Source: Bacillota bacterium
GTDB taxonomy: Bacteria; Bacillota; Limnochordia; Darwinibacteriales; DTU012
Direction of reading: 5' to 3'
DNA: 41,332 nt
NCBI GenBank assembly: GCA_012798795.1
Contig: JAAZMN010000129.1
Span: 1 to 41,332 of the forward strand
Numbering within the stretch: the first letter of the stretch is position 1; each line of letters starts with the position of its first letter. This document shows, one piece after another, positions 2,993-41,332 of the stretch. Made by a program: the position numbers and the translations under genes. Below the pieces are notes generated by a model. It saw nothing but the letters and a program-made list of their open reading frames with translations. It was not told the origin of the DNA and made no database searches.

Positions 2993-4626
2993 CAAAATTC
3001 CTCCTTAAATACACTGAACTTCCAATTCAGGGTGGTATCGACGTTTCTAATCATACCTATATTCACATCAAACGGGTACATTCCAAAGAGACGGAAATTT
3101 GTTCCCAAGCCGGCTTGATATGAAGTATTAGGTTCCCATTTTGATAATAAACTTTCTAAATCTACCTGCCCATAGATATATGGCCTGGCTAGAGTAATTT
3201 CCATAAGGGAGAAAAACTCATCGGTAAGATACAGCTTGATTCTGCCGCTTAAATTGAGATAAATTGGTTCTGTGTCAGCGTTAATCTTTTTGACCAGTGC
3301 AGCAGCAGAACCTAACTGAAAGTTTTTCTGTTTTAAAACAGCGTTGTTAACTATTGAAACACGCCATTTATAAGTACCGTTCAGCTGGTACGACCCTTGA
3401 AATCTCGTGTTTTTGATTAAAGGGAATTCGAGCTTAATACCGACATTTAATTTTTCATTCATATTTAGTTTACGGACAAACAGTTCGCCTTGCCCTACAG
3501 CAGGTTTCGACCAGCCAAAGAAAACTTCATGTCCTCCTTCAGCTGCCGAAAAACCGTAACGGTAACCAAGATTAAACCAGGATAACGGGCCATGACTGAG
3601 TTTTAACCCAAGTTTCAAAGCACAGTCATCAGATAACTGGATTTGAGGAGTTACTGAAAACGGGCGTTTAGTATTTAATGCAGTTTTTTCTGCTTTTGTT
3701 ATGATCTTTTCTAGGCATTCTTGAGAATATCCTTGTTGTTGATAAGGTACGAATTCAAAATCGGGGTCATGTGCCAATATGGCTGTCTTTATTTGCTCCA
3801 TATATTTAATGCCAGCTAAGTAACCTTCTTCAATAAACATTTCGGCTTTTTGGTAATCCATATATGAATCGAATTTCACGTCAGGTATAATAATAACATC
3901 GGCTTCAGCTGTATTTAACTCAACATATCCGTCAATCATAAACCACATTGCTAACTGCAGATTGTTAAGAACACTGTTATAATTTATGCTTTTTAGTTCC
4001 TTTTTTACATCAACACCAATAATTACATCAGCACCGAAATTCGACGCAGTATTAACCGGCACAGCATTTTTCATTCCGCCGTCAACGTAATACACATCAT
4101 TAATAGATACAGCTGGAAATAAGGCAGGGATTGACATGCTTGCTTGAATACCAGTGCTGACTTTCCCTTGATTTAACGCTAATTCTTCTCCAGTAGCCAG
4201 CTCAGTGATAACTGAATAAAAGGGAATATCCAACTCGGCAAAAGTTTTATGATGTAGCAAAACGTCAAGATATTGTTCTAATCTTGCGGTGTTGATAAAA
4301 CCGCCTTTAGGGGGAATTAATATATCTATAAGCGAAGCGACATTTAGTTGGGTGGCAATTTCTTTCATGTTTTCTACCGAATAACCGGCGGCATAAAGAC
4401 CTGAAACAACACTGCCCATACTTGTACCGACAAGCATGTCGATGGGAACTCCATTTTCTTCAAACGCTTGTATTAGTCCAATGTGACTAAAACCTCGAGC
4501 TGCTCCGCCGCCTAAAACTAAGGCAACTTTAGGATTAGATACAGCAAAAACTATATGGGATTGCATAAGAAAGAAGACTATTATACATATCGATATCAAA
4601 GGTAATCTTCTTGTGTTTCTGAGCAA
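2992..4626 (-). CDS. Patatin-like phospholipase fused to an Omp85-type (bacterial surface antigen) beta-barrel, PlpD/type Vd-like
   Basis: Signal peptide. Patatin motifs GGGAARG (oxyanion hole), GTSMG (GxSxG nucleophile) and VDGG (catalytic Asp). The C-terminal ~240 aa is a beta-strand pattern ending GLGTNFRLFGMYPFDVNIGMIRN...NWKFSVFKEEF with a terminal Phe, as in Omp85-family barrels. TTG start with GGAG upstream. Confidence 0.75.
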   Translation of the reverse strand: MLRNTRRLPLISICIIVFFLMQSHIVFAVSNPKVALVLGGGAARGFSHIGLIQAFEENGVPIDMLVGTSMGSVVSGLYAAGYSVENMKEIATQLNVASLIDILIPPKGGFINTARLEQYLDVLLHHKTFAELDIPFYSVITELATGEELALNQGKVSTGIQASMSIPALFPAVSINDVYYVDGGMKNAVPVNTASNFGADVIIGVDVKKELKSINYNSVLNNLQLAMWFMIDGYVELNTAEADVIIIPDVKFDSYMDYQKAEMFIEEGYLAGIKYMEQIKTAILAHDPDFEFVPYQQQGYSQECLEKIITKAEKTALNTKRPFSVTPQIQLSDDCALKLGLKLSHGPLSWFNLGYRYGFSAAEGGHEVFFGWSKPAVGQGELFVRKLNMNEKLNVGIKLEFPLIKNTRFQGSYQLNGTYKWRVSIVNNAVLKQKNFQLGSAAALVKKINADTEPIYLNLSGRIKLYLTDEFFSLMEITLARPYIYGQVDLESLLSKWEPNTSYQAGLGTNFRLFGMYPFDVNIGMIRNVDTTLNWKFSVFKEEF

Positions 4627-6498: not shown

Positions 6499-9495
6499 AT
6501 GATTGTACCACTGCATGTTCACAGCGAGTATTCTTTAACAGAATCCTGTATAAAAATAGAAAAGCTCGTGAAGAAGGCTGCAGATTTAAAGTATCGGGCA
6601 ATAGCCCTTACTGATCATAATACCATGGCCGGATTAGTGTCTTTTTACAGATTGTGTCGTCAATATAATTTGAAACCCATATTAGGGTTGGAAGTGGATA
6701 TAACTGGATTATCTGTAGCTGACCAAATTGTTTTATTGGCAGAAAATAACACCGGGTATGAAAATCTATTACAATTGGCATCCCATGAGAAACCAGTCCC
6801 CCTGGAAGTATTAAAAGACAATAATCAGGGGTTAATCGGATTGGTTTCTTTTAATAATTGTGAGGATGCACCGCTTACTTATCACCAGTTAACTCGGATA
6901 TTCGGGAAAGAAAATATTTTTATAGAATTATCGGCGGATGATTCTCAGCGACGAGCTGCAGCAAATCAATTATATAAAATGTTTCCAGTTGAAGTTTTTG
7001 CTGCTGCTCAAAGTGTTTATTATCTGGAACCAGACGAATTAGAATTGATCCGGCTTTTACGCAGTATCAAGTACAATAAAAAAGCAAAGGAAATAGAAGT
7101 AATTGAGCGGCCGTTATTGGCACCGGATGTAATCTGCCGAGATTTTGGTAATTTACCGCAGGCGATAAAAAACACTGTCAAAATTGCCGAAAGATGTCAG
7201 GTAAAATTAAGGCCAGAGATTAGATTTCCGAAACTGCCGGAATCTGTTGATTTAAAAGAAATTGTACTAGACGGGGCAAAGAAACGCTATGGTAAATTAA
7301 CAGATTCAATTTTGGAACGTCTTCATTACGAATTAGACGTAATTGAAGAGATGGGTTTTACCGATTATTTTTTGATTGTAGCGGATATAGTCAGGTATGG
7401 AAAAGCAAAAGGGATTCCTATCGGACCGGGAAGGGGCAGTTCTGCCGGTAGTCTAACGGCTTACTGTTTAAATATTACTGACATTGATCCTCTGCGACAT
7501 CAACTGCTTTTTGAACGATTTCTCAACAAAAAACGGCATAATCTTCCTGATATTGATCTGGATATCTGCTGCATTCGGCGGGAAGAAATAATCGATTACT
7601 GCATTAATCGTTTTGGTAAAGAACATGTGGCGAAAATCGGGGTTTACGGTACTTTCGGATATGCTCAAGCAAATAGTGAGATGAAAAAACGTTTTGATAG
7701 GTCAAATCCTTCGCTTGCAAATAAACTGGTAGGTTTAAAACAATACTTTTCGACACATGCGGCAGGTCTGATTATTACTCCAGAACCGGTTATCAAGTAT
7801 AGCGCGGTAGAAATTGTTGACGGGATTTATGTCACTCAATTAACAATGGATGTTTTAGAGGAATTAGGAGTATTAAAAATTGATTTACTGGGTTTGAGAA
7901 ATCTTACGATTTTACATCAAATTCAGCAGTTAATCAACTTAAGTCAACCAGATTTTTCACTTAAACATATTCCTATTCACGATGAACGAACATTTGAGTT
8001 ACTTGGCCGAGGTGAAACACTGGGAATTTTTCAGTTGGAAAGCAGATTGTTTACAAATATATTGACCCGGCTTAGACCCAGGAGTTTCTCTGACTTAACA
8101 GCTTTATTGGCCTTGGGCAGACCGGGACCGTTAAAACAAATACCTCGGTATATTAAGCGTCGCGATGGGCAAGAAAGAATAAAGTACATTCATCCGCGAT
8201 TAGAATCGATTCTAGCTGATACTTATGGTTTAATGATTTATCAGGAACAGGTAATGCAGGTGGCACATGAGATAGCTGGATTCAGTCTGGAAGAGGCTGA
8301 TTTACTGCGAGTCGCTATCAGCAAAAAAGATGGTGATTTAATTAAGAAATTACGCAGTAAATTTATACAGGGTTGTGAGAAGAATGGCTTAAATTATCAA
8401 GTGAGTAATAAATTGTATTTAGAAATAGAACAATTTGCGGGTTATGCTTTTAATAAAGCTCATAGTACTGCATATGCCAAGATAACTTGGCAATTAGCGT
8501 ACTTAAAAACTCATTATCCGATAGAATTCTACCTGGCACAATTGAAGAATATTACAAACGTAACGAAAATTGGCGAATTCTATCAAGAGTGTAAAATAAG
8601 AGGGATTAGAATATTACTGCCGGATATACGTTATTCGGAAGTTAACCATGTAAAGGAAGGTAATTCTATAAGAATCGGATTAACCGGTTTAAAGCACATC
8701 GGTGAAACCACAGCTGAGGCTATAATTATAGCAAGAACACAAAAAGCTTTTTCTAATGTGGAGGACTTTTTTAGGCGTGCAGCACTGCCAATGAGGACAC
8801 AATATATTTTGGCTTACGGTGGTGCGCTTGACGGGTTTGGAGAGCGGGATGCGATTATTAAAAAGATTGCGGATTTTCACAATGAAGCTCTTCCAGTCAT
8901 TAATCAACTGGAATTGCTTGAGAAAGAAAAGGAAATAGTAGGAATATATTTATCGGCTCATCCTGTAGACCGCTGGATTAATTTTTTAGATCAGTTGGAG
9001 CCAAGTTTAGGCACTTATGCAGCAGGTCATATAAGTGAAGTTCACGAATATAATCAGGAAGTAACCGGTGTTATATCTAATATTGACTCTATTTGTAAGT
9101 TTTCACTTGCAAAAGAAAAATATGAATTCAGCCCTTTTCTGAAACATAATGCTTTAGCTGCGTTATTTGGCAGGTTCCAAGATGATAACTTGGAAATTGA
9201 ATGGGTGTTACCTTTACAACCGATGCTGGTAATTAAACCAAAAATTAATCAAATTAATCAGCTGCAGAAGCTGCTTTCACATCATCAAGGTACTACACCG
9301 GTAATACTAAATTTGGATCAGGGAGTACTTCAGCTGGTTGCTTCCAGATTCTGGCTCAATCCTGATCAGGAAATAATCTCTAAACTGGAAAATTACGCAA
9401 GTTTCTTTCAATGGATCGATCCTTGGGAAAGCAGGTTTTTGGATACTTTTATGGAAAATAATCATGTTAGTTCTCAGATAAAAGGGGGCCACTGA
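6499..9495 (+). CDS. dnaE: DNA polymerase III alpha subunit (DnaE type)
   Basis: 998 aa. N-terminal PHP domain ([10 protein letters not shown]..). Palm/fingers motifs ([27 protein letters not shown]). SD GAGAGGGG lies upstream. Confidence 0.93.
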
Positions 9496-16767: not shown

Positions 16768-16853
16768 TGGTGCCGAAGGAGGGAGTCGAACCCTCATGGG
16801 GCTAGCCCACACGATTTTGAGTCGTGCGTGTCTACCAATTCCACCACTTCGGC
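16768..16853 (-). tRNA. tRNA-Leu (anticodon CAA), class II with long variable arm, CCA encoded
   Basis: Hand-folded cloverleaf. Acceptor GCCGAAG/CTTCGGC. D-arm GTGG..ACAC. Anticodon stem CACGA/TCGTG with loop CTCAAAA. Long variable arm. T-arm GAGGG-TTCGACT-CCCTC. Discriminator A plus CCA. Confidence 0.93.
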
Positions 16854-34831: not shown

Positions 34832-34869
34832 AATACCACAGAAAGAGGATTTATTTGGTAAGGGGGATT

Positions 34870-35031
34870 ATGGTGAAACAAGAAAAGACTGAACATAAGC
34901 ATATTAAAACACTGACTAAATCTTCATTGACAAAAACTTTAGTTAGCGGTGGGTGTGGAGAGTGTCAAGCATCTTGTCAATCAGCTTGTAAGACCTCTTG
35001 TACAGTAGGGAATCAAGCTTGTGAGCGCTAA
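34870..35031 (+). CDS. SCIFF (six-cysteines-in-forty-five) ribosomal peptide precursor, 53 aa
   Basis: Not in the ORF track (too short). ATG 34870 follows AAGGGGG. Translation is MVKQEKTEHKHIKTLTKSSLTKTLVSGGCGECQASCQSACKTSCTVGNQACER. The KHIKTL leader and the GGCGECQxSCQSACKTSCTVxNQxCE core are the SCIFF family signature. It lies immediately upstream of its radical-SAM partner. Confidence 0.9.
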   Translation: MVKQEKTEHKHIKTLTKSSLTKTLVSGGCGECQASCQSACKTSCTVGNQACER

Positions 35032-35109: not shown

Positions 35110-36477
35110 GTGCTGGATAAAGAATGTGTGCACTGCTTTTCTCATAACCATCAATACTTCGTTGTAGACGGAAACTCCGGTTCTGTTCATTTATTAGATG
35201 AGTTAGCTTATCAGATGATAAAAGCTATTAAAGACGGATTAGAGTTTGATGAAACAGCAGTAATCAATCATTTGTCAAATGAGTATTCTCCTAGAAAAAT
35301 TAAAGAAGCTTTTGAGGAAATAACAGTCCTTGTAAAAGAAAATCTGCTTTTCAGCCCGGACTTTACTGAAATACCAAAGGAAATCGATTCTGTTGTAAAA
35401 GCGTTGTGCTTGAATGTTGCTCATGACTGTAATCTAAGATGTAAATACTGTTTTGCACAGACCGGAGATTTTGGTGGGAAAAGGGAATTGATGAGTTATG
35501 CTGTAGCCAAGAAAGCCGTTGATTTTTTGATAAATGCTTCGAAAAATCGACATCAACTGGAACTGGATTTTTTCGGTGGTGAACCATTACTTAACTTTGA
35601 AGTTGTTAAAAAAACTGTTCTTTACGGTGAAGAGCAAGCTAAAAAACACAATAAGAATATTCGTTTTACTATAACCACTAATGGAATTGGATTAACTAAA
35701 GCAATTCAAGATTTTTTGAATGAAAAAATGTATAATGTTGTTTTAAGTATTGACGGACGTCGGGAAGTAAATGATGCCGTAAGGCAGACTATTAATGGTG
35801 AAGGTTCAGTTCACGATGTTATTGTGCCTAAATATCAAGAGTTTGTTAAAGCTCGTAAAGGTAAGCAGTATTATGTGCGGGGAACATTTACTAAAAATAA
35901 TTTGGATTTCTGTGAAGACGTACTTTATTTAGCTGGATTAGGTTTTGATCAAATTTCCATGGAACCAGTTGTTGCTGATTCTGCATTGGATTATGCTTTA
36001 ACAGAAGCCGAATTGCCAACTATTTTTCATGAATATCATCGACTTGCAGATGAATTACTAGAATATTATCAGACGAAGAAATCATTTAATTTCTTTCATT
36101 TTAATGTTGAGTTAAAAAAAGGACCCTGTTTATATAAACGGATAGCCGGTTGTGGTGCCGGACATGAATACATTGCAGTGACACCAACTGGTGAATTGTA
36201 TCCTTGTCATCAGTTCATCGGTGATGAAAAATACAAAATCGGAGATGTATCGCAGGGAATTATTCGGCCTGAGCTCGGTGAACGGTTGAAACACGCCCAT
36301 GTGCTCAACAAGCCTACATGCCGCAAATGCTGGGCTAAATATTACTGCAGCGGTGGTTGTCATTTTAATAATCTCAAATATGGCGGTTCTTTATCTGATC
36401 CATACCTACTCGCGTGCGAAATGGAGCGGAAGCGTTTAGAGTGCAGTTTGTACATTTACAGCAGCCTTAACAATTAA
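35110..36477 (+). CDS. SCIFF radical SAM/SPASM maturase (thioether-forming, CteB/Tte1186-like)
   Basis: 455 aa. Radical SAM CNLRCKYC (CxxxCxxC). C-terminal SPASM cysteines (CGAGHEY..., CHQF, CRKCWAKYYCSGGCH). N-terminal VVDGNSGSVHLLDE RRE-like segment. GTG start 6 nt after GAGGTGA. Confidence 0.9.
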   Translation: MLDKECVHCFSHNHQYFVVDGNSGSVHLLDELAYQMIKAIKDGLEFDETAVINHLSNEYSPRKIKEAFEEITVLVKENLLFSPDFTEIPKEIDSVVKALCLNVAHDCNLRCKYCFAQTGDFGGKRELMSYAVAKKAVDFLINASKNRHQLELDFFGGEPLLNFEVVKKTVLYGEEQAKKHNKNIRFTITTNGIGLTKAIQDFLNEKMYNVVLSIDGRREVNDAVRQTINGEGSVHDVIVPKYQEFVKARKGKQYYVRGTFTKNNLDFCEDVLYLAGLGFDQISMEPVVADSALDYALTEAELPTIFHEYHRLADELLEYYQTKKSFNFFHFNVELKKGPCLYKRIAGCGAGHEYIAVTPTGELYPCHQFIGDEKYKIGDVSQGIIRPELGERLKHAHVLNKPTCRKCWAKYYCSGGCHFNNLKYGGSLSDPYLLACEMERKRLECSLYIYSSLNN

Positions 36478-36586
36478 AGGATATGGTATTATGCTGCAGT
36501 GGTCCAGCATAATGGTAATATTTTTCTATAAATTATTACATTAAGAAGGACTTCGCTCTTTAATCATAGAATATACTATTACGAAA

Positions 36587-36662
36587 AAGTTAGGGAACAA
36601 TGATCGATACTCATTAACTGGGCACTTTGAGTATGGGGAGTTAGTAGTGCAACCGACCACTT
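36587..36662 (+). promoter_or_regulatory. c-di-GMP-II (class II cyclic-di-GMP) riboswitch aptamer in the pilB leader
   Basis: GGGAACAATGAT...CTGGGCACTT...GAGTTAGTAGTGCAACCGACC contains the conserved blocks of the c-di-GMP-II class as I recall them from the crystallised Clostridium acetobutylicum aptamer. The internal helix is kept by different bases (ATACTCA/TGAGTAT here), which is covariation-like support. It ends about 10 nt before the pilB SD. Confidence 0.8.
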
Positions 36663-36684
36663 ATACCGTGTGAGGTGATGCGGT

Positions 36685-38382
36685 TTGGCACAAAGGAAAC
36701 GTCTGGGGGATATACTTATAGAAAGAGGATTACTTAACGAACAGCAGCTGCAAAAAGCCTTGGCTATGCAGCGGGATTCTGGCGAAAAGTTAGGTAATGC
36801 TTTAATTAAGCTTGGTTTTATAACCCCAGATAATTTAGCTGATGCTCTAAGTGTACATCTTGGATATCCAAGAGTTGATTTGAATCGTCATTATATTTCA
36901 ACTCCTGTGGTCAAAATGATACCAGAGGAGTTTTTAGCATCTCATGAGATATTTCCCCTTGATTTAAATAATAATGTAATGACAGTAGCTATGACGGACC
37001 CGTTAAACATTTTAGTAATAGATGAACTGCAGAGGATTACAGGTTATATAGTTAAGCCCGTAATAGCTACAAGTGATGAGATAAAAGCGGCGGTTAATCG
37101 TTCGCATGATATTATCTCTACTGCTCGGAAAGTCTTTGATGAATATACTGATGAAGATTCGGATCAATCTGATCAGAATCAGGAGGAGTATTTAGGTGAT
37201 GCGCCGGGAGTTCGTTTGGCCAACATAATTTTGGAACAAGCCGTTAGGGAGAAAGCCAGTGATATTCATTTGGAGCCTCAAGAGGAAGAGCTTGACGTCA
37301 GATTTAGGGTAGACGGTATTTTACGAAAAGTAATGACAGTTCCTAAAAGGCTGCGCAATGATGTAAATTCGCGGATCAAAATTATGAGTAATCTTGACAT
37401 TACTGAAAGGCGTCGTCCGCAGGATGGCAGAATTCAAACTAAGATAGGCGATTCTGAAGTTGATATGCGTATTTCAACGTTACCGACAATTCATGGTGAA
37501 AAAATTGTTGCACGTGTATTAAACAAATCTCACGGACCCTTAAGTATTAAAGAGTTTGGATTTGATGAAGATTCTAACGAAAAAATTCTTCGAATTCTAA
37601 ACATTTCTCAAGGTTTAATATTAGTAACCGGCCCGACAGGCAGTGGCAAGACAACCACTTTGTATGGATTTTTAAATCATCTAAATACAGTAGAAAAAAA
37701 CATTATTACAGTTGAAGACCCGGTTGAGTATCAATTAACTGGAATTAATCAGGTACAGATAAATCCAAAAATAGGATTAACTTTTGCTGCAGGATTGCGA
37801 AGCGTATTGCGCCAAGATCCGGATATTATTATGGTAGGTGAAATCAGAGATGATGAGACAGCAGAAATTGCAGTTCGTTCGGCTTTAACCGGGCATTTAG
37901 TTTTGAGTACTGTGCATACCAACAATACGGTTGCTACCATCAGCCGATTAATGAACATGAATGTTGATCCTTATTTAATTAGTGGGACTATATCTGCTAT
38001 AATTTCACAAAGATTAGTGCGAAAAATCTGTCCTGAATGTAAAGAAGAAGTTTTACTAACTGATCCTTTAGCTATTAGGTTTATTAAATCTCTGGGGGTT
38101 TCTGTCCCCAAAGTCGTATATCAAGGAAAAGGATGTCCGTTGTGCAAGGATTCAGGCTATTTAGGCAGAGTTCCGCTGGAAGAAGTCTTGATTGTCAATA
38201 GGCAGCTGCGCAAGGCAATTGATGCTAAAGCCAGTGAAGATGATATGCGGGAGATTGCAATCCGCAGTGGAATGGTACCGCTGCAGGTTAATGCTGTATT
38301 AAAATTGATTCAAGGAATTACAACTGTTTCTGAAGTGATTCGTACTGTATACAGTACAGATGAACAGGAGGCGTTGGATTGA
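36685..38382 (+). CDS. pilB: Type IV pilus assembly ATPase PilB (GspE family) with N-terminal MshEN domain
   Basis: 565 aa. MshEN/T2SSE_N N-terminus. Walker A GPTGSGKTTT, Asp box, Walker B, His box. Tetracysteine CPEC...CPLC. TTG start 7 nt after GAGGTG. Confidence 0.92.
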   Translation: MAQRKRLGDILIERGLLNEQQLQKALAMQRDSGEKLGNALIKLGFITPDNLADALSVHLGYPRVDLNRHYISTPVVKMIPEEFLASHEIFPLDLNNNVMTVAMTDPLNILVIDELQRITGYIVKPVIATSDEIKAAVNRSHDIISTARKVFDEYTDEDSDQSDQNQEEYLGDAPGVRLANIILEQAVREKASDIHLEPQEEELDVRFRVDGILRKVMTVPKRLRNDVNSRIKIMSNLDITERRRPQDGRIQTKIGDSEVDMRISTLPTIHGEKIVARVLNKSHGPLSIKEFGFDEDSNEKILRILNISQGLILVTGPTGSGKTTTLYGFLNHLNTVEKNIITVEDPVEYQLTGINQVQINPKIGLTFAAGLRSVLRQDPDIIMVGEIRDDETAEIAVRSALTGHLVLSTVHTNNTVATISRLMNMNVDPYLISGTISAIISQRLVRKICPECKEEVLLTDPLAIRFIKSLGVSVPKVVYQGKGCPLCKDSGYLGRVPLEEVLIVNRQLRKAIDAKASEDDMREIAIRSGMVPLQVNAVLKLIQGITTVSEVIRTVYSTDEQEALD

Positions 38383-39419
38383 AACCTGTCAGCCATATAC
38401 ATGAATTACTTGAAATTGCAATTGATCAACGTGCTTCGGATTTACATATTTCTCCGGGGATTCCTCCATATTTGCGAATTTTTGGGAAGGTTATTCCTCT
38501 AACAGCTTATGAGAAATTAGCACCAAATGAAATTGAAGTATTGATAAAACCAATAATAGATGCTGAGCAGCACAAAATTTTAAATAAACATGGCGAAGTG
38601 GATTTTTCCTATGGAGTGCGAGGCGTTGGCCGCTTTCGGTGCAGCGTATATCAGCAGCGGGGTTCGCTGTCAGCAGCCATTCGTGTAATTAATGCCAAAA
38701 TACATTCCTTACAGCAGTTGGGATTACCCAGTATTATCAAGGATATTGCCAGAAAAAAAGATGGACTTATTCTGGTTACCGGCCCGACCGGAAGTGGTAA
38801 ATCTACAACCTTAGCAGCTGTGATCAATTTAATTAATGAGGAGCGCCAAGGTGTAATTATTACTTTGGAGGATCCGATAGAGTATTTACACAGTCATAAA
38901 CGTTGTATTATTAATCAGCGCGAAGTAGGTACGGATACACGCAGCTTTGCTAATGGGCTTAGGGCAGCATTAAGAGCGGATCCGGATGTGATTTTAGTTG
39001 GTGAAATGCGAGATTTGGAGACAATAGCTACCGCCATAACTGCCGCTGAAACCGGACATCTTGTTTTATCAACCTTACATACACGAGGAGCTGCCAAGAC
39101 TATAGATCGAATAATTGATGCATTTCCTCCTGATAATCAACAGCAGATTAGAGTTCAATTATCAATGGTTTTAGAAGCAGTAATATCCCAGCAGCTGATT
39201 GTTAAAAAGGATGGAGACGGAATGGTGCCTGCGGTAGAAGTTATGCTGGGAACACCGGCAATTCGAAATTTAATTCGCGAAGGGAAAACGCATCAGATAA
39301 ATTCTGTAATTGAAACGGGAAAGAGATTTGGGATGAAGACTTTGACATCGTCCGTAAATGAATTAGTTTATGCGGATCAGATCAATTTAGAAGATGCTCA
39401 AATTTTTGGGTTTGATTAA
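38379..39419 (+). CDS. pilT: Twitching-motility (retraction) ATPase PilT
   Basis: 346 aa. ASDLHI, GPTGSGKSTT, DPIEY, AALRADPDVILVGEMRD, GHLVLSTLHT, AIRNLIREGK. The TTG start overlaps the pilB stop by 4 nt and GGAGG lies upstream. Confidence 0.9.
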   Translation: MKPVSHIHELLEIAIDQRASDLHISPGIPPYLRIFGKVIPLTAYEKLAPNEIEVLIKPIIDAEQHKILNKHGEVDFSYGVRGVGRFRCSVYQQRGSLSAAIRVINAKIHSLQQLGLPSIIKDIARKKDGLILVTGPTGSGKSTTLAAVINLINEERQGVIITLEDPIEYLHSHKRCIINQREVGTDTRSFANGLRAALRADPDVILVGEMRDLETIATAITAAETGHLVLSTLHTRGAAKTIDRIIDAFPPDNQQQIRVQLSMVLEAVISQQLIVKKDGDGMVPAVEVMLGTPAIRNLIREGKTHQINSVIETGKRFGMKTLTSSVNELVYADQINLEDAQIFGFD

Positions 39420-40645
39420 TGGTGGTGAAGCATATGATCCAATTTCAATATAAAGCTAGAGACAGACAAGGCAGAGAAGTAAACGGGACTATTGAAATGG
39501 ATACGAAGGAGCTTGCAGTTACGAGTTTGCGGGAGCAGGGTTATTATGTTACCGAGATAAAAGAAGTATCCAAACGCCGTTTGAGTAACATAGTTATATT
39601 TCAGTCCAGTAAAACCCTAAAAGCAAAAGATTTGGCTTTGTTTTGCCGTCAATTTGCTATTCAATTAGAAGCAGGTTTGTCTTTAACTGCATGTTTAGAG
39701 CTGCTGGAAGAACAGTCTGCAGATGAGATTCTTAAAAACGTTTTAAGAACAATTAGATTAGATGTAGCCAGCGGCATGACATTCACAAATGCAGTTGAAA
39801 AGCATAAAGAAATATTTCCGCATGAGTTTATTTACTTAATTTCAGCTGGAGAAATTGCCGGAGAACTGCCTGCTGTATTAGAGCAGTTGGCTGTTTACTA
39901 TGAAAGAGAAGATGAGCTGCGTAAAAAACTGTCCGAAGCTTTGATGTACCCGATTGTTATTGCTAGTATAGCTGTTATAGTTGTTATTGCACTAATATTT
40001 TTTGTTTTGCCGATGCTGATCAAAAACTTTTCCGCTTTTGGAGTGCAAACTCCCCGGATTACACAGGTAATATTAGACGCCAGAGACTTCTTAATCGACT
40101 TTTGGTATGTGTTTGTTGGATTTATTGTATTTTTTATTGTATTTATAAAATGGTATTTAAAGACTAAAAGAGGATGTTATCAAAAAGATCTGCTCAAGTT
40201 GAAACTGCCGATTATGGGCAAAATCAATCAGATGGTTATTTTTTCTCGAATTTCGCGAGTGTTAGGACTGCTGTTGGCCAGCGGAATTTCCATGGTAAAA
40301 AGTTTAGAAATTACAGAGCGGTTAATTACCAACGTTTGGATTCGGGACTCATTAAACGATTCAAGATTAGCTGTTGAAAAAGGGCAGGGATTGACTGAAC
40401 CGTTGAAAAAGAGTAATTTATTTCCAGCAATGTTTGTGCAGATGGTTGCAGTAGGCGAGGAAACCGGGAACTTAGAACAGACTTTAAAACATCTGTCTGA
40501 TTATTACGATAAGGAAGTAAATTTTACAGTTTCAGCATTTACAAAACTGCTTGAACCTGTAATGATGGTTGTACTGGCCATAGTAGTATTATTTGTTTTA
40601 GTATCGGTATATTTACCCATGATTCAAATGGTAACACAGCTGTAA
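39419..40645 (+). CDS. pilC: Type IV pilus platform protein PilC (GspF family)
   Basis: 408 aa. Two GspF repeats (FCRQFAIQLEAGLSL..., FSRISRVLGLLLASGISMVKSL...) and three TM segments. The ATG overlaps the pilT stop (TAATG). Alternative ATG at 39434. Confidence 0.9.
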   Translation: MVVKHMIQFQYKARDRQGREVNGTIEMDTKELAVTSLREQGYYVTEIKEVSKRRLSNIVIFQSSKTLKAKDLALFCRQFAIQLEAGLSLTACLELLEEQSADEILKNVLRTIRLDVASGMTFTNAVEKHKEIFPHEFIYLISAGEIAGELPAVLEQLAVYYEREDELRKKLSEALMYPIVIASIAVIVVIALIFFVLPMLIKNFSAFGVQTPRITQVILDARDFLIDFWYVFVGFIVFFIVFIKWYLKTKRGCYQKDLLKLKLPIMGKINQMVIFSRISRVLGLLLASGISMVKSLEITERLITNVWIRDSLNDSRLAVEKGQGLTEPLKKSNLFPAMFVQMVAVGEETGNLEQTLKHLSDYYDKEVNFTVSAFTKLLEPVMMVVLAIVVLFVLVSVYLPMIQMVTQL

Positions 40646-40661
40646 ACATTAAAGGGTGATA

Positions 40662-41332
40662 ATGTTGAAAAAATGCCTAGGCTTAGATATTGGCAGTGAA
40701 CAAATTAAATTGGTCCAACTGCAAAGAAAAGGTAGAAACAGCTATTTGGTAAGTTCGTGTCAGAAAATTAAGACGCCAGAAGGCAGTGTTGCCAATGGCA
40801 AAATTATGGATGTTGAGCGACTAAGAAAATGTCTTCAGCTGTTGATAAAAGGGTCTGGTATTACTACAGATAACGTAGTTATGGGTTTAGCGAGTCCTGA
40901 GATAATGATCAGAAAAACAGAATTTCCCTCCATGCCCGGAAAGGAATTGGCACAGGCAATTAGATTTGAGTTAAGTGACATCTTGATGTTGGATGATTCT
41001 AGTATTGAAGACATTGCATTTTCATATGAAGTTTTACATGCCGGAGAAAACCAACAAAAAGTTTTGGTGGTAGGATGCAGACGAGAATTAGTAGAGCCTT
41101 ATATAGATTTACTTAATAGTGTTGGTTTAGTTCCCTGGGTAATTGACATTGCTGCTTTTGCTCTTCCTAGAGTAATTGATACTAGAAATCGTATTTGCTT
41201 TGTAGATCTTGGTGCCGAGCAAACTGTAATTTATGTGGAAAAAAACATGACATATTCTGTTTATCGTATTTTGCCCTTTGGGGGTTCGTTAATTAATAAT
41301 GTAATTAAAGAAACATTTGGAGTTGACTCCTA
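40662..41332 (+). CDS. pilM: Type IV pilus assembly protein PilM (actin-like ATPase fold), 3' end outside the window
   Basis: Not in the ORF track because there is no stop in the window. The open frame reads MLKKCLGLDIGSEQIKLVQL...AIRFELSD...FVDLGAEQTVIYV... with no stop to base 41332. Typical PilM N-terminus and position after pilC. Confidence 0.8.
   Translation, partial: MLKKCLGLDIGSEQIKLVQLQRKGRNSYLVSSCQKIKTPEGSVANGKIMDVERLRKCLQLLIKGSGITTDNVVMGLASPEIMIRKTEFPSMPGKELAQAIRFELSDILMLDDSSIEDIAFSYEVLHAGENQQKVLVVGCRRELVEPYIDLLNSVGLVPWVIDIAAFALPRVIDTRNRICFVDLGAEQTVIYVEKNMTYSVYRILPFGGSLINNVIKETFGVDS

Follow-up and report, generated by a model that had tools for sequence, protein, structure and literature searches.

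The window, that is, the whole stretch of 41,332 nucleotides (nt) analysed from contig JAAZMN010000129.1 of a Bacillota bacterium, contains a pilB gene for the extension ATPase of a type IV pilus (T4P). Analysis of this gene revealed two sites at which c-di-GMP (cyclic dimeric guanosine monophosphate) may act: a class II c-di-GMP riboswitch (c-di-GMP-II) in its leader, and a tandem MshEN motif at the N-terminus of the encoded protein. It is likely that c-di-GMP both raises the synthesis of PilB and loads the protein with ligand, in this way promoting pilus assembly. The features on which this two-tier reading is built are the following:

36584..36665, + strand: c-di-GMP-II (class II) riboswitch aptamer, a full-length match to Rfam model RF01786
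36647..36691, + strand: putative expression platform, in which the 3' strand of the aptamer, GUGCAACCGACCAC, could pair with the Shine-Dalgarno sequence (SD) and the start codon
36685..38382, + strand: pilB, T4P extension ATPase of 565 amino acids, TTG start, with Pfam T2SSE and MshEN domains
36685..37134, + strand: MshEN domain (residues 1-150), a four-helix-bundle N-subdomain and an alpha/beta C-subdomain, supported by an AlphaFold2 model, Foldseek and phmmer
36700..36771, + strand: MshEN motif I (residues 6-29), RLGDILIERGLLNEQQLQKALAMQ, a strict match to the consensus
36772..36786, + strand: spacer RDSGE of 5 residues, its length as in MshE
36787..36858, + strand: MshEN motif II (residues 35-58), KLGNALIKLGFITPDNLADALSVH, which aligns to R38-Q61 of MshE

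The open reading frame (ORF) at 36685-38382 encodes a PilB-type extension ATPase and heads a T4P operon with the order pilB-pilT-pilC-pilM. Its product, translated from the TTG codon, begins MAQRKRLGDILIERGLLNEQQLQKALAMQRDSGEKLGNALIKLGFITPDNLADALSVH. The SD GAGGTGA is located at 36672-36678, ahead of the TTG, and the start of the ORF is not extendable upstream because of an in-frame TGA at 36676-36678. Pfam T2SSE (PF00437) covers residues 171-553 (448 bits, expectation value (E) 2.4e-134), and the ATPase motifs are intact, with a Walker A sequence GPTGSGKT at residue 316 and a Walker B sequence DPDIIMVGEIRD at residue 378. A His box (TGHLVLSTVH) is found at residue 402, and CxxC pairs at residues 449 (CPEC) and 484 (CPLC). 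When the full-length model was searched with Foldseek, the matches covered the ATPase core only and were the cores of PilF and PilB proteins, with template modelling (TM) scores of about 0.9. The closest homologues of this PilB (57-92% identity) belong to uncultured Bacillota; among them are Candidatus Wallacebacter, Candidatus Darwinibacter and Limnochordia-labelled records. The host is itself an uncultured bacterium of the Bacillota, with Candidatus Darwinibacteriales as its relatives.

The published MshEN consensus (PMC5013675) was applied as the strict pattern RLG..[LVI][LVI]..G[LVI][LVI]....L...L..Q. An earlier note on this DNA had claimed that residues 6-29 fit every position of the consensus; motif I indeed matches the strict pattern, at exactly the coordinates given there, and is the single match across the six-frame translation of the whole window. 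By chance, the strict motif is expected about 1e-6 times in the window, and for a protein with the composition of PilB the figure is about 5e-8; a chance occurrence of motif I was rejected on the window value. The description of the motif as perfect holds for motif I, while motif II is a variant. For the latter, the spacer of 5 residues, the lysine at the first position and the histidine at the last were correctly reported, and a third deviation had been overlooked: compared with the consensus in the abstract of that paper, motif II fits 8 of the 11 specified positions and departs at K35 (position 1), F45 (position 11) and H58 (position 24). Phenylalanine at position 11 occurs in Vibrio cholerae MshE itself, and G(I/F) is permitted in the Results of Wang 2016 (PMC5013675). 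The literature agrees that this motif is the established c-di-GMP site of MshE and of some PilB-type ATPases (PMC5013675, PMC11656802); binding was demonstrated for MshE, M. xanthus PilB, Clostridium perfringens PilB2 and Thermus PilF (PMC11656802; PMC11731258).

A phmmer search aligned residues 4-130 of PilB with V. cholerae MshE (5HTL) at an E of 1.4e-19. The alignment of residues 4-66 with MshE residues 7-69 is gapless, with 29 of 63 positions identical (E 4e-13). Comparison of the 16 key residues of MshE, defined after Wang 2016 as the ligand contacts plus the helix-turn glycines G18 and G47 and numbered with an offset of +3 from PilB, showed that 13 are identical in PilB. From motif I of MshE, R9, L10, G11, D12, G18, L25, L29 and Q32 are kept as R6, L7, G8, D9, G15, L22, L26 and Q29, and from motif II, L39, G40, G47, L54 and L58 are kept as L36, G37, G44, L51 and L55. 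The changed residues are R38 (K35 in PilB), D41 (N38; a contact made via the backbone amide only) and Q61 (H58). Pfam MshEN (PF05157) matched residues 59-139 (71.3 bits against a cut-off of 23.1, E 6.5e-20), and this match omits the tandem motifs because the Pfam model spans the C-subdomain only. The AlphaFold2 model of residues 1-150 has a predicted local distance difference test (pLDDT) value of 89 and a predicted TM (pTM) score of 0.79, with helices at 7-13, 19-32, 36-42 and 48-59 followed by the alpha/beta subdomain. Its best match in the Protein Data Bank (PDB) according to Foldseek is 5HTL ("MshE with cdg"; TM 0.80/0.84, root-mean-square deviation 2.1 A), and the next matches are the GSPII domains of Thermus PilF and the N-domain of Xanthomonas citri PilB (7LKM, 7LKO). 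In the model, both motifs fall within the four-helix bundle which makes up the binding groove of MshE, so that alignment and modelling alike bear out the domain assignment of the earlier note.

The same note had put a riboswitch ahead of pilB, and the Rfam search recovered it: the aptamer scores 66.8 bits (E 5.8e-13) with RF01786, whose gathering score is 53.5, and ends 19 nt before the TTG codon of pilB. The leader belongs to pilB, because the upstream gene has its own terminator-like hairpin at 36487-36514. A terminator was sought between the aptamer and pilB, and none occurs in the 19-nt linker; control by the platform in the window is therefore probably translational. According to RNAfold, a hairpin of -14.4 kcal/mol can form in which the strand GUGCAACCGACCAC is paired with the SD GAGGUG (36672-36677), the UUG start and the next codon. 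We infer that the riboswitch of the window is, quite probably, a translational ON switch that would work by releasing the SD and the start codon from this hairpin.

The leader was then compared with those of relatives, defined as contigs that encode close homologues of PilB. An Rfam scan revealed that at least 8 lineages carry the same aptamer directly ahead of pilB, and that aptamers resembling it occur in two more distant loci (loci are designated by L numbers; identities refer to the PilB of the window):

L105: PilB 92% identical, riboswitch upstream of pilB
L106/L107: PilB 78% identical, riboswitch upstream of pilB; aptamer of L106 at 2899-2981
L108: PilB 75% identical, riboswitch upstream of pilB
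L111: PilB 72% identical, riboswitch upstream of pilB
L081-L083: PilB 63% identical, riboswitch upstream of pilB
L114: PilB 62% identical, riboswitch upstream of pilB
L115 (protein named Ca. Darwinibacter acetoxidans): PilB 60% identical, riboswitch upstream of pilB
L116: PilB 58% identical, riboswitch upstream of pilB
L005, Geosporobacter ferrireducens, 3823-3906: c-di-GMP-II-like aptamer upstream of pilB, 47.4 bits (sub-threshold); PilB about 45% identical
L021, Anoxynatronum buryatiense, 3865-3948: c-di-GMP-II-like aptamer upstream of pilB, 43.7 bits (sub-threshold); PilB about 45% identical

The aptamers of Geosporobacter and Anoxynatronum were flagged by a covariance model built for this analysis (R1), which captured 9 base pairs, and compensatory changes are present in their pseudoknot helix (GGGCAC/GUGC to GGACGC/GCGU). 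Judged by sequence, they look like a real variant subclass ahead of pilB that is missed at the RF01786 threshold of 53.5. A further R1 match, in L006 at 7919-7999, was dropped, since Rfam left it unconfirmed even at E <= 0.1. At that same relaxed limit no riboswitch was detected in L109/L110 (protein named Ca. Wallacebacter), L112 or L113, and at the gathering threshold no c-di-GMP riboswitch was detected in Paenibacillus (L001, L004), L012 or 16 further loci, mostly of Bacillota.

Inspection of the sequence between aptamer and gene showed that the expression platforms of orthologous c-di-GMP-II leaders upstream of pilB are of two types. A hairpin followed by a U-run, that is, a terminator, comes after the aptamer in L111, L114, L115, L116, L081, L005 and L021, where the linker measures 41-88 nt or longer. 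In all seven loci the 5' arm of the terminator is the aptamer's own 3' strand (AACCGGC...); the folded, ligand-bound aptamer precludes the terminator, and the arrangement is therefore that of an ON switch. The other type is found in the window, L105, L106 and L108, with a linker of 18-20 nt, an SD and a TTG start, and no terminator.

Two side observations concern these leaders and the supply of the messenger. In L106, the public gene call contains an ORF of 65 amino acids at 2597-2794, upstream of pilB and ending about 100 nt before the aptamer; it has a weak Pfam match only and may be spurious. In the riboswitch-less relative L113, a protein of the GGDEF + HD/HD-GYP type is encoded at 1-1512, about 1.5 kb upstream of pilB.

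According to the proposed mechanism, the tandem motifs of PilB would bind one c-di-GMP in the manner of MshE. Each guanine would stack on a triangle of leucines with R6 or K35 as the cap and would form hydrogen bonds with the main-chain amides of G8/D9 or G37/N38, while Q29 and H58 would contact the ribose-phosphate. The c-di-GMP-bound class II riboswitch would turn pilB expression on, in the window by freeing the SD and the UUG start, and in the terminator-type relatives by preventing formation of the terminator. Overlapping stop and start codons would carry the translational control on to pilT and pilC. At high c-di-GMP, more PilB would be made and PilB would be ligand-loaded, leading to pilus assembly.

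Several observations weigh against this mechanism. H58 stands where the glutamine of MshE makes two hydrogen bonds with the ligand, and histidine falls outside even the relaxed search pattern of Wang 2016, which accepts [QNKRYWST] at the last position (PMC5013675). In Thermus PilF, the GSPII-A domain has a near-perfect motif I (ending in H33) and a degenerate motif II, and does not bind c-di-GMP (PMC11731258); since it fails to bind despite its motif I, the outcome hinges on motif II. On the side of the RNA, the hairpin that would sequester the SD is no stabler than those of shuffled sequences (z -0.87), and its AACCG/CGGUU helix is not retained in L108. Finally, genes for GGDEF, EAL and HD-GYP proteins were sought in the window and none was found; in consequence, synthesis of the messenger by the host is assumed from the presence of the riboswitch itself. 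The search of the window for PilZ genes was likewise negative.

The stronger of two alternatives takes the MshEN domain for a retained structural or interaction module, for PilM, PilC or another partner, without useful c-di-GMP binding, which would leave the riboswitch as the only tier. Besides the behaviour of GSPII-A, this alternative draws on the loss of both the arginine and the glutamine from motif II and on the N-domain of X. citri PilB, which has the same fold and works through PilZ-FimX (PMC12564702). PilB nevertheless retains every hydrophobic contact residue and the two Gly-x backbone donors, and in MshE it is the hydrophobic residues that dominate binding, mutants of charged residues shifting the affinity by less than 5-fold (Wang 2016; PMC5013675). 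The GSPII-B domain of Thermus PilF, with K and L as the first residues of its motifs, binds c-di-GMP with a dissociation constant (Kd) of 6 nM; the Q218E exchange at the last position of motif II raises the Kd to 460 nM, and only the double Q-to-E exchange abolishes binding (PMC11731258). Non-binders such as XpsE carry many substitutions, including G11V, G40L and L54H (PMC5013675), and none of these disruptive changes is seen in the PilB of the window.

Natural variation at the two positions was assessed in 130 tandem MshEN-like units found in the best 150 representatives of a library of 1.8 billion proteins. At the last position of motif II, 95 of the 130 units have Q and 16 have H, the second commonest residue there; at the first position, R occurs in 55 and K in 28. 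As common natural variants, K35 and H58 are therefore not signs of decay. Moreover, R6, L7, G8, L11, L26, Q29, L36, G37, L55 and H58 are invariant in 47 homologues (57-92% identity), and the invariance of H58 throughout the clade suggests a functional role for this residue, which counts against the alternative. No c-di-GMP binder with a terminal histidine is characterised in the MshEN literature examined. On balance, a role of the domain as a structural or interaction module alone appears unlikely, and sequence, model and analogy make it quite probable that the PilB N-domain binds c-di-GMP, possibly with altered affinity.

The weaker alternative questions the RNA tier, and holds that the riboswitch of the window is non-functional or an OFF switch, so that the two tiers would be uncoupled or opposed (incoherent) and would not form the coherent feed-forward arrangement proposed in the earlier note. 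The missing terminator, the distance of just 19 nt from aptamer to start codon, the poor z value of the hairpin and several P1 pairs that are non-canonical in the Rfam alignment speak for it; it is very improbable, however, as the aptamer scores well over the gathering threshold, the short linker with SD and TTG start is conserved in four loci (PilB identity 75-92%), all seven terminator-type orthologues have ON geometry, an OFF design needs a bound aptamer that occludes the SD, yet the SD lies outside the aptamer, and the known class II riboswitch of T4P genes, Cdi-2-4, is an ON switch (PMC6366702).

The relation between the two tiers was examined through the survey of other riboswitch-preceded pilB genes suggested in the earlier note. 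In every one of them, motif I retains R-L-G...L...L..Q and motif II retains [K/R]-[L/I]-G; position 7 of motif I is Q or R in several, and the PilB of L005 has K instead of the turn glycine of motif II. The riboswitch-less L109, L112 and L113 keep the motif equally well. The two features are therefore not co-dependent, and the idea that the motif is retained only alongside the riboswitch was rejected on account of these three loci. By sequence, the motif is the normal state of this PilB family, with no specific coupling to the riboswitch. A riboswitch and a PilB with MshEN occur together in the window and in at least 10 other loci, and the predicted positive action of either tier is taken from homologues.

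A different pairing of an RNA sensor with a protein sensor was observed in L003, a metagenome-assembled genome of Desulfovirgula sp., where a class I c-di-GMP riboswitch (6860-6948, 81.7 bits) lies between pilT and pilC. A pilin gene is located downstream of this riboswitch, and the PilB of L003 has a near-consensus MshEN motif.

Among known systems, V. cholerae MshE (5HTL, PMC5013675) shares with PilB the fold and the 24 + 5 + 24 layout at the very N-terminal end of a T4P extension ATPase, as well as a basic N-terminal patch (RKR). It differs in having R38, D41 and Q61 where PilB has K35, N38 and H58; PilB belongs to a Gram-positive host, and its binding of c-di-GMP is a prediction. Thermus PilF likewise has MshEN-like domains whose first residues are other than arginine (K, L, P) and which still bind c-di-GMP, so that a change of the K35 type is tolerated by the motif; however, it carries three tandem domains that keep the terminal glutamine, whereas PilB has one domain, ending in histidine.

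The closest precedent for the combination is Clostridioides difficile, in which a class II riboswitch acts on T4P genes and an MshEN-type PilB is encoded in the same organism. There, Cdi-2-4 is an ON switch for pilA1 and, by read-through, for the pilB operon (PMC6366702), and PilB1 is recognised as bearing the MshEN motif for c-di-GMP (PMC9765702 Fig. 5B; PMC8653836). Since C. difficile already has the two tiers, the concept is not new, although no statement that frames this riboswitch/PilB pair as a two-tier circuit was found in the searchable literature. The arrangement differs in that the C. difficile riboswitch precedes the pilin gene pilA1, whereas here pilB is the first gene, 19 nt from the aptamer, and in that the pilB leader of the window lacks a terminator and control is probably translational.

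C. perfringens PilB2 is a further Firmicute PilB with a near-consensus MshEN motif, and the secondary literature available on it makes no mention of a riboswitch on pilB2. As summarised in PMC11656802, its affinity for c-di-GMP is high, and c-di-GMP promotes pilin polymerisation (Hendrick et al. 2017); according to the same source, its ATPase rate in vitro is unaltered by c-di-GMP. By analogy with this result, the earlier note's wording that c-di-GMP gates the activity of PilB may be too simple.

One messenger acting on both the synthesis and the function of one output has parallels beyond pili. Pel is under multi-level control by c-di-GMP through FleQ and PelD. For V. cholerae TfoY, transcriptional control is combined with the Vc2 riboswitch (Pursley 2018, as cited in PMC6366702). 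The present case differs from these circuits in that both sensors, the RNA aptamer and the protein domain encoded after it, reside in one transcript.

Two elements are new: a riboswitch immediately before pilB, the first gene of the operon, in an arrangement shared across a clade, and a platform that is probably translational in the sub-clade of the window. MshEN-type PilB proteins and riboswitch-controlled T4P operons are already established in Clostridia, and current understanding is not overturned. If both tiers work, one messenger would set both the amount and the ligand-loaded state of a motor ATPase from a single transcript, and the c-di-GMP dose-response of pilus assembly should sharpen. 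A more specific, and doubtful, possibility is that in Bacillota resembling Candidatus Darwinibacteriales pilB has become a direct target of the class II riboswitch, at the level of translation in one sub-clade, while the clade-invariant histidine sets an affinity that is pH-dependent or unlike that of the RNA sensor, giving an AND gate with two thresholds for pilus assembly; if so, the shift from a terminator to an SD-sequestering platform would be a compact natural case of riboswitch platform evolution. The findings would also extend c-di-GMP control of T4P to a group of uncultured bacteria that occurs in anaerobic digesters; pili may be relevant there to aggregation or syntrophy. They further identify histidine at the last position of motif II as a common natural variant that is absent from the published search pattern.

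The remainder of the operon and the genes immediately upstream of the leader were annotated as follows:

38379..39419, + strand: pilT-like retraction ATPase of 346 amino acids (Pfam T2SSE, E 1.8e-46), without an MshEN domain
39419..40645, + strand: pilC, platform protein (Pfam T2SSF, E 5.5e-55, two copies)
40656..41332, + strand: pilM, partial, cut by the end of the window, with a frame open from 40653 onward
34855-35031, + strand: gene of a SCIFF (six-cysteines-in-forty-five) ribosomal peptide (PF13165, E 1.3e-23)
35110-36477, + strand: radical-SAM/SPASM maturase of the SCIFF peptide, directly upstream of the pilB leader

The gene order pilB-pilT-pilC-pilM is common to 10 relatives, and the pilM slot holds PilM_2/FtsA genes in L105, L108 and L111-L116. 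The stop codon of pilB and the start codon of pilT overlap by 4 nt (TTGA, 38379-38382), an overlap that is kept in relatives, and the stop codon of pilT and the ATG of pilC overlap by 1 nt (TAATG, 39417-39421). Such overlaps suggest translational coupling, by which control at the level of the leader could pass down the operon.

Upstream of the leader, the pair of SCIFF peptide and radical-SAM genes occupies the same position in L115 and L116, and L105, L106 and L108 have a radical-SAM gene at that position but no SCIFF call confirmed by Pfam. The remaining window is ordinary chromosome, with dnaE, accD/accA, pfk, pyk, nrd, polA, fpg and coaE, and its sole transfer RNA gene, for tRNA-Leu(CAA), is located at 16768-16853 on the minus strand.

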